Assembly (NCBI RefSeq): GCF_056746865.1
Contig: NZ_CM163382.1
Direction: 5' to 3' (one strand)
Length of the DNA: 64,000 nt
Position numbers and translations under genes: made by a program. Positions 46,897 through 47,454 of this stretch are shown piece after piece (position 1 is the first letter of the stretch; each line of letters begins with the position of its first letter). Below the pieces are notes generated by a model. That model made no database searches. It saw only the letters and a list, made by a program, of their open reading frames with translations, and was not told where the DNA came from.

Positions 46897-47151
46897 CAGG
46901 AGGTTATCATTGATATCGTGTTCCCGGGCAATACGGGCAACAGAGGCTCCTGGTTGCAAAACCAGTTTAACCATTTGAAGTTTAACTCATTTGAAAATGA
47001 TCTGCGGGGTTCTGCGGATAATGTTTTTGCTCCATAACAGGCGTCCACCAGTTTTGATACCACAGTTGAACGATAAACAGAAACCTGCTGATAAAACACC
47101 GTGGCGACATGACAAAACGCCAGAGCAAAAACCGTAAGCGCATTATTCGTC

Positions 47152-47454
47152 TTGTGGAACTCTGGCCTGAGTCATTCAACCGGGAAAAAAACAAAACCAC
47201 TTAAAGTGGGGATACCTGACGACCTGATACAGGATATCGCCATCCGAGAACTGGCGTTTGGCGCTGGTACATTACATGCAGCAGTGGCGTCTTATGTGCA
47301 GTCTCCGCGCTATTACCGTGCGTTAATAGCAGGTGGCGCCCGTTACAACCTGAACGGTCAGCCGTGCGGGGAAGTGACACCACAGGAACAGAAAGAGGCA
47401 GAGACCCGTTTAATGATGCTGAATGACCGACGAAAAGCCAGAAAACCTCGTTGA
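47152..47454 (+). CDS. ProQ/FinO-domain protein (possibly frameshifted near 47186)
   Basis: ...GIPDDLIQDIAIRELAFGAGTLHAAVASYVQSPRYYRALIAGGARYNLNGQPCGEVT... resembles the FinO RNA-binding domain; an upstream 31-codon frame (47109..47201) would fuse by one slip in an A7 run. Confidence 0.5.
   Translation: MWNSGLSHSTGKKTKPLKVGIPDDLIQDIAIRELAFGAGTLHAAVASYVQSPRYYRALIAGGARYNLNGQPCGEVTPQEQKEAETRLMMLNDRRKARKPR

Follow-up and report, generated by a model that had tools for sequence, protein, structure and literature searches.

The window, by which we mean the whole 64-kb stretch of DNA that we analysed, is a mosaic E. coli genomic island. It contains genes for a SPATE-type S6 peptidase and a YadA-like adhesin, IS debris, the remnant of a ProQ/FinO gene, UCP030791, AlpA, YagK/YfjJ and YfjI genes, and a block of GTPase, DUF932, antirestriction and CbtA–YeeU genes; no tRNA genes were found in the 64 kb. 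The island is a mosaic of the virulence type, because the S6 gene (a 1291-aa ORF at 12840–16715, minus strand, which corresponds in the closest relative to a gene for an S6-family (SPATE) autotransporter peptidase) is flanked by IS3 and IS66 debris in that relative. The gene for the YadA-like trimeric autotransporter adhesin (44242–46062, minus strand, 606 aa) includes a tandem repeat of 99 nt (33 aa) at 44810–45384, present in 5.8 near-perfect copies, and the gene's length varies between strains: the version in L010, the closest relative of the region, has 555 aa, a difference that is likely to lie in the repeat copy number.

The ProQ/FinO gene belongs to an island module that is conserved in E. 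coli, Salmonella and Citrobacter, in which it converges on a 182-aa UCP030791 gene that is followed by AlpA and YagK/YfjJ genes. In the window, the UCP030791-family gene occupies 47473–48021 (minus strand, 182 aa) and 18 nt separate the convergent stop codons; in L005, the ProQ/FinO and UCP030791 genes overlap. Transcripts of such a convergent pair might act as natural antisense partners of a FinO-type protein. AlpA (48287–48523, minus strand), a gene of about 190 aa that has no Pfam match and then YagK/YfjJ come next, an order found in all, or almost all, of the relatives that we compared (L001–L015). The window's ORF between AlpA and YagK/YfjJ (48592–49197, minus strand, 201 aa) is likewise without a Pfam match; relatives have its counterpart annotated as a 'hypothetical protein', and that of L010 carries a frameshift.

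Two reading frames make up most of what is left of the ProQ/FinO gene. One, of 31 codons (MTKRQSKNRKRIIRLVELWPESFNREKNKTT), runs on the plus strand from ATG 47109 to a TAA at 47202–47204; the other lies in the +1 frame, is open from 47113 to a TGA at 47452–47454 and encodes ...KPLKVGIPDDL...KARKPR. The initial annotation had proposed that a single slip in a run of seven A would fuse them, and the removal of one A does yield a continuous ORF of 114 aa (the addition of two As gives 115 aa). The run has exactly seven As, as had been stated, and lies one base to the left of the position given for it, at 47185–47191 and not at 47186–47192. By itself, such a run is ordinary in the window, where runs of at least seven As occur 10 times and runs of at least seven Ts 7 times; this one is meaningful because homology flanks it on either side. 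The repaired 114-aa frame matches the Pfam ProQ profile (PF04352; curated cut-off, 27 bits) with 76.4 bits over profile positions 5–107 of 109. The downstream frame by itself scores 62.9 bits over positions 23–107, and positions 5–22 come from the 31-codon frame. Matches to the domain among PDB sequences are ProQ, NMB1681, RocC and FinO. The two frames together are one FinO/ProQ domain, split at the A7 run: once repaired, the frame is a member of the ProQ/FinO family, and as it stands the coding of the domain is interrupted.

Intact homologs show what the gene looked like before it was broken. The ancestral gene consists of a disordered N-terminal extension of about 55 aa and a FinO RNA-binding domain, and starts about 165 nt upstream of ATG 47109. 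Full-length, intact genes are found in L005 and L006 (167 and 174 aa), and in the split-form relatives L004 and L007 an upstream ORF of about 60 aa precedes a 114-aa ProQ/FinO ORF whose start corresponds to ATG 47109. Across a large protein collection, family members from E. coli, Shigella, Salmonella and Citrobacter are mostly 158–187 aa long, and forms of 113–114 aa occur only among close relatives of the window's allele. The extension is conserved in 15 diverse members that we aligned (M-TLTINRKPKGIY...DKTT...TPWRHMTKRQRKNR), and all 14 of the divergent homologs (52–88% identity) have a single frame across the site of the A run. ATG 47109, which had been taken as the native start, is thus not where homologs begin. 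The other expectation of the initial annotation was borne out, in that alignment to intact FinO/ProQ-like genes places the 31-codon part in frame, unbroken at the A-run site; homologs that start at a downstream ATG and lack a conserved upstream extension, which would have spoken against a frameshift, are not what the alignment contains.

An AlphaFold (AF2) model of an intact homolog, P0001, predicts that residues 1–51 of the extension are disordered and that a confident FinO domain follows (domain pLDDT, 85–93), with helix 1 at residues 61–76 (KRQRKNRKRINRLVEL). The model matches the folds of FinO (1DVO), RocC (7RGT/7RGU), NMB1681 (3MW6) and Lpp1663 (6S10), each with a probability of 1.00; the FinO-domain fold is thereby assigned to the intact homolog and not to the window's broken copy. 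Pairwise dN/dS values over the domain are 0.12–0.32, and the family is therefore under purifying selection. Close relatives are rare on plasmids, and none was found in the phage records searched. It is known that islands of this kind carry 'ProQ/FINO family protein' genes to which no function has been assigned (PMC6174562); the words pseudogene, frameshift and integrative do not occur in an evolutionary review of FinO/ProQ proteins (PMC9977716).

DNA alignment and BLAST comparison with L010 reveal three lesions in the window copy (Table 1). The claim that the gene is broken at the A run stands; a 2-nt deletion and a 1,619-bp deletion, which had been overlooked, are also present. At the run, the ancestral sequence GGG-AAAAA-CC-AAAACC has become GGG-AAAAAA-C (A6, in frame, with a change of Pro to Thr) and then GGG-AAAAAAA-C (A7).

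Table 1. Remains of the ProQ/FinO gene and its lesions in the window.
Feature	Position	Strand	Basis and remarks
IS66-family accessory transposase (tnpA) fragment	46873..47054	-	Abuts the pseudogene; left edge of the 1,619-bp deletion
Deletion junction, 1,619 bp missing relative to L010	47054..47056	.	BLAST: window up to 47054 equals L010 up to 8619, window from 47056 equals L010 from 10239
Leftover codons of the N-terminal extension (...IPQLNDKQKPADKTPWRH)	47056..47108	+	DNA and protein alignments; third frame, no start of its own
2-nt deletion, CATATG to CATG	47107..47111	+	Alignment; uncouples the extension from the FinO domain
31-codon frame (MTKRQSKNRKRIIRLVELWPESFNREKNKTT, then stop)	47109..47204	+	Helix 1 of the FinO domain, then out of frame to the stop
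A7 run, the frameshift site	47185..47191	+	DNA alignment; in-frame A6 siblings
Remaining FinO/ProQ domain (TKPLKVGIPDDL...KARKPR, then stop)	47191..47454	+	Pfam and PDB matches; +1 frame, no credible start

At the site of the 2-nt deletion, L004, L005 and L006 read ...CATATGACA / ...AATATGACA, and the window reads ...ACATGACA, as do L001–L003 and L007, with the same shorter form in L008 and L009. The deletion is thus common to a large clade (L001–L003 and L007–L009), to which we add L011–L015 on the strength of their split annotation. Loss of the extension has happened more than once: two independent lesions have cut it off before the same Met, namely the 2-nt deletion in the clade of L007 and the window (L007 site, 3054–3082) and, in L004, an insertion of about 5 nt (3061–3064), through which stop and start come to overlap in an ATGA. 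The 114-aa form that these lesions leave is so common (P0137 is found on at least 1000 contigs) that the domain by itself may still be expressed and useful in strains that have this form.

The 1,619 bp that are missing from the window held a transketolase fragment, a decayed IS1, the upstream region of the gene, its Shine–Dalgarno sequence (gAGGTaacaaaattgATG), the start codon and the first 110 nt or so of coding sequence. Because the junction is exactly the same in 13 of the 5,426 complete genomes, it is inherited and not an assembly artefact. On its left, window positions 47000–47054 match an 'IS66-like element accessory protein TnpA', and PGAP calls the equivalent stretch of L003 a 'transposase, frameshifted; incomplete'. 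What survives of the ancestral ORF is spread over three different frames (47056–47108, 47109–47189 and 47191–47454). A chimeric ORF of 48 aa (46991–47137, plus strand) runs across the junction, joining the antisense of the IS66 fragment to the tail of the extension (...IPQLNDKQKPADKTPWRH...); gene callers could pick it up, and it is almost certainly meaningless. The L010 copy has an extra 1-nt deletion of its own in a AGCAAAAACC run (at about 10257, codon 7), a second and independent homopolymer frameshift.

The A7 allele is widespread. When 77 nt with the run at their centre served as the query, about 347 of 5,426 complete E. coli genomes gave a 100% match; these genomes come from many laboratories, hosts and countries and carry the allele at different chromosomal positions. 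The same query with A6 has an exact match in 2 complete genomes, and with A8 in none of the 5,426. For the A7 allele in relatives, RefSeq/PGAP uses the label "ProQ/FINO family protein, frameshifted", and a frameshifted pseudogene is to that extent already known from public genomes.

In-frame A6 alleles occur on two backgrounds, which differ at residue 110. On D110 they are represented by L008 and L009 and by protein P0093 (19 contigs), and on A110 by protein P0092 (10 contigs) and a cluster member (5 contigs). Logan assemblies from two public sequencing runs belong to the A110 group, and A6 is for that reason less likely to stem from an assembly artefact. A7 is likewise found on both D110 and A110, so that all four combinations of tract and background occur. 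In the A6 siblings (L008, L009 and L011–L015) the domain is otherwise identical; L011, L014 and L015 have the gene sequence of L001 apart from tract length, and between L008 and L002, which occupy the same chromosomal site, the gene differs in tract length and one substitution. Given that both lengths are present on two backgrounds, the tract has changed more than once or has moved by recombination between island copies; up to 10 places per genome match the island family.

Signals for expression, which we judged by consensus scans of transcription and translation sites, are scarce in the window copy. The native start has a Shine–Dalgarno sequence and ATG 47109 has none evident, and a consensus scan of the plus strand found no promoter-like site between 46700 and 47700; as consensus evidence, both observations are weak. 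In the repaired frame, the equivalents of ProQ Y70 and R80 are Y68 and R78, in columns that are invariant in the 15-member alignment. The helix-3 arginine is absent: the equivalent of ProQ R58 is His56 in the window allele (R56H), a position occupied by Arg in ProQ, in RocC and, among the 14 other aligned island homologs, in 13, with Cys in P0120. In ProQ, the R58A substitution abolished the binding of all seven RNAs tested (PMC10168233). Because R56H is also present in the in-frame A6 alleles, it predates the frameshift; we have accordingly downgraded it as a sign of decay after the frameshift. It may have been the first hit to inactivate the gene, or a change that the protein tolerates. The dN/dS ratio proved uninformative as a test of decay, as over 108 codons the window's repaired frame does not differ from the A6 alleles and so cannot show relaxation after the frameshift; its divergence from intact alleles (dN/dS 0.16–0.24) still looks constrained.

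We conclude, with a probability of roughly 90%, that the locus is a pseudogene, non-functional and hit by several lesions, of a FinO/ProQ-domain gene carried on an E. coli island. Among the options that had been put forward for it, a pseudogene is the one that the split of the domain across frames, the three lesions and the RefSeq 'frameshifted' label support. The damage came in three hits, all of them evident from the sequence comparisons. The change of CATATG to CATG separated the extension from the domain in a large clade. A C-to-A substitution turned A5CC into a run of six As, to which a replication slip added one more; the A7 run brings a stop after codon 31, severing helix 1 from the remaining domain. 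The 1,619-bp deletion beside the IS debris took the upstream region, the Shine–Dalgarno sequence, the start and the beginning of the coding sequence. The window copy would give no useful product, and at most, if it is transcribed, a trace of the 114-aa protein through spontaneous +1 slips or rare A6 or A9 transcripts. The further 1-nt deletion in L010 counts, in our reading, as continued decay.

Next to the pseudogene, the reading that survives best, although a very improbable one, is that A6/A7 acts as a low-rate on/off switch or as a leaky 'savior indel' for the island's FinO-domain chaperone. If that were true, the widespread A7 would be an advantageous 'off' or 'trickle' setting and not neutral decay, and it would apply to relatives that keep the upstream region and start, not to the 5'-truncated copy of the window. 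Slightly less probable again is phase variation at the DNA level, in which an A6/A7 contingency switch would toggle the island RNA chaperone through slipped-strand mispairing. The presence of both lengths on the near-identical D110 and A110 backgrounds would suit such a switch, as would the tract-only difference of L011, L014 and L015 from L001 and the near-match of L008 and L002, but the extreme skew of the counts (about 347 A7, 2 A6 and 0 A8) would not, and with up to 10 island-family copies per genome, recombination or gene conversion is an easy alternative. Moreover, the 'on' state of this clade is already split from the N-terminal extension, and the window also lacks the upstream region and start. 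For switching at high frequency in E. coli with intact mismatch repair, a mononucleotide tract of 6–7 is short. A mutational hot spot in a homopolymer is, in our reading, a better description of the tract than a contingency switch, although switching at a low rate may occur.

Programmed recoding, in which ribosomal frameshifting or transcriptional slippage at A7 would yield a regulated FinO-domain protein, is a still more distant prospect. Its attraction is that the 0-frame codons GAA AAA AAC place A_AAA_AAC (47186–47192) in phase as a classical −1 slippery heptamer, but we rejected a programmed −1 frameshift because its product (...REKNQNHLKWGYLTT, then stop; 39 aa) is a dead end outside the FinO frame, which can be reached only by a +1 or −2 ribosomal shift or from an A6 or A9 mRNA. 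A +1 slip of tRNA-Lys, re-pairing from AAA to AAA, is possible and would give exactly the 114-aa product; against it, the A site would hold AAC instead of a stop codon, and the 0 frame reaches its stop four codons later, at 47202. This is unlike the slow-codon or stop-codon A-site layout of prfB-type +1 sites. In E. coli, A_AAA_AAC is much less prone to shift than A_AAA_AAG (PMC5009743). As for transcriptional slippage in bacteria, selection against it is evident for runs of about 9 nt, and 8 are productive in some organisms (PMC1088944); the seven As fall short of this range of 8–9. Low-level compensatory frameshifting at 'savior indels' is known elsewhere (PMC5009743), and the A7 allele is far commoner than its A6 sibling, but the two-frame layout occurs in one near-identical allele only and divergent homologs are all single-frame, so that the recoding site is not conserved. 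The copy in the window is, in addition, without its upstream region and native start, and even perfect correction gives a protein without the conserved extension. The suggestion of a slippage-controlled gene thus found no support, with the shift in the wrong direction, the run too short and the layout unconserved.

A sequencing or assembly error, with a true tract of A6 and an intact 114-aa frame in this genome, had also been considered, and we find it hardly credible. Homopolymers are error-prone and A6 versions of exactly this allele exist, but the identical A7 in about 347 independent complete genomes, set against A6 in 2 and A8 in none, leads us to reject it. A7 is also found in L003 and the other genomes with the rare 5' deletion junction of the window, and even an A6 copy would be without the native start and upstream region. 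Least probable of all is an internal start that would give a truncated but functional FinO-domain protein, from TTG 47152 or, by termination–reinitiation, from GTG 47206 (2 nt after the TAA at 47202 that ends the 31-codon frame); these are the only start-like codons in the FinO frame upstream, and some GenBank annotations do name the TTG ORF, but neither has a Shine–Dalgarno sequence, the first 11 residues of the TTG product would be out-of-frame junk, and its Pfam match covers only profile positions 23–107; helix 1 of the fold would be missing. Some GenBank/RefSeq records list the TTG ORF (47152–47454, plus strand, 100 aa) as a real 'ProQ/FINO family protein' (P0122; 71 contigs, with a MULTISPECIES entry among them), most likely a misannotation of the pseudogene.

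If the locus is a pseudogene, as we favour, the ORF of 31 aa and that of 100 aa, which some pipelines call a 'ProQ/FINO family protein', are two pieces of one dead gene, and the native gene was longer than had been assumed; the result mainly tidies the annotation. Beyond this locus, the island FinO-domain clade has been split or inactivated repeatedly, which may offer a natural series for studying the roles of island RNA chaperones.

Several known systems resemble parts of this locus. At the frameshift site, the G7 'savior indel' of herpesvirus thymidine kinase is likewise a single-base indel in a 7-nt coding homopolymer (PMC5009743), and the −1 heptamers of dnaX and IS elements are likewise in phase, as A_AAA_AAC is here. 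In contrast to these cases, the window has no sign of selection for leaky expression, the −1 frame is the wrong one and the layout is unconserved. Among FinO-domain proteins, the minimal proteins RocC of Legionella and NMB1681 of Neisseria have the same fold (TM-scores up to 0.85, normalised to the target) and give significant sequence matches, but they are only 25–30% identical and are found in different genomic contexts. F-plasmid FinO (PDB 1DVO) is the best fold match of the intact homolog (rmsd 1.9 Å over 102 columns) and aligns by tblastn over 90% of the length at about 30% identity; in both proteins, a disordered N-terminal extension lies ahead of the FinO domain (PMC9977716). FinO is encoded in a conjugative transfer region, whereas the window gene lies on a chromosomal island, and no FinP/traJ-like RNA partner was identified there, with no Rfam family above gathering thresholds in the 64-kb window. 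[quoted passage not shown] Identity to ProQ is about 30%, and the island protein has the N-terminal extension instead of the linker and C-terminal Tudor-like domain of ProQ; it shares the tyrosine and arginine equivalent to Y70 and R80, but has His in place of R58 in the window allele. The closest counterparts are the island 'ProQ/FINO family proteins' of E. coli, Salmonella and Citrobacter (WP_000537018.1, 174 aa; WP_000258197.1, 167 aa; and the split form WP_141115997.1, 114 aa), which are direct orthologues or alleles with the same synteny; the window's domain is 84–88% identical to the aligned close relatives. From these, the window copy differs by the +A frameshift, the 2-nt deletion, the 5' truncation and R56H, and where the gene is intact it is encoded as one ORF (two in the split form).
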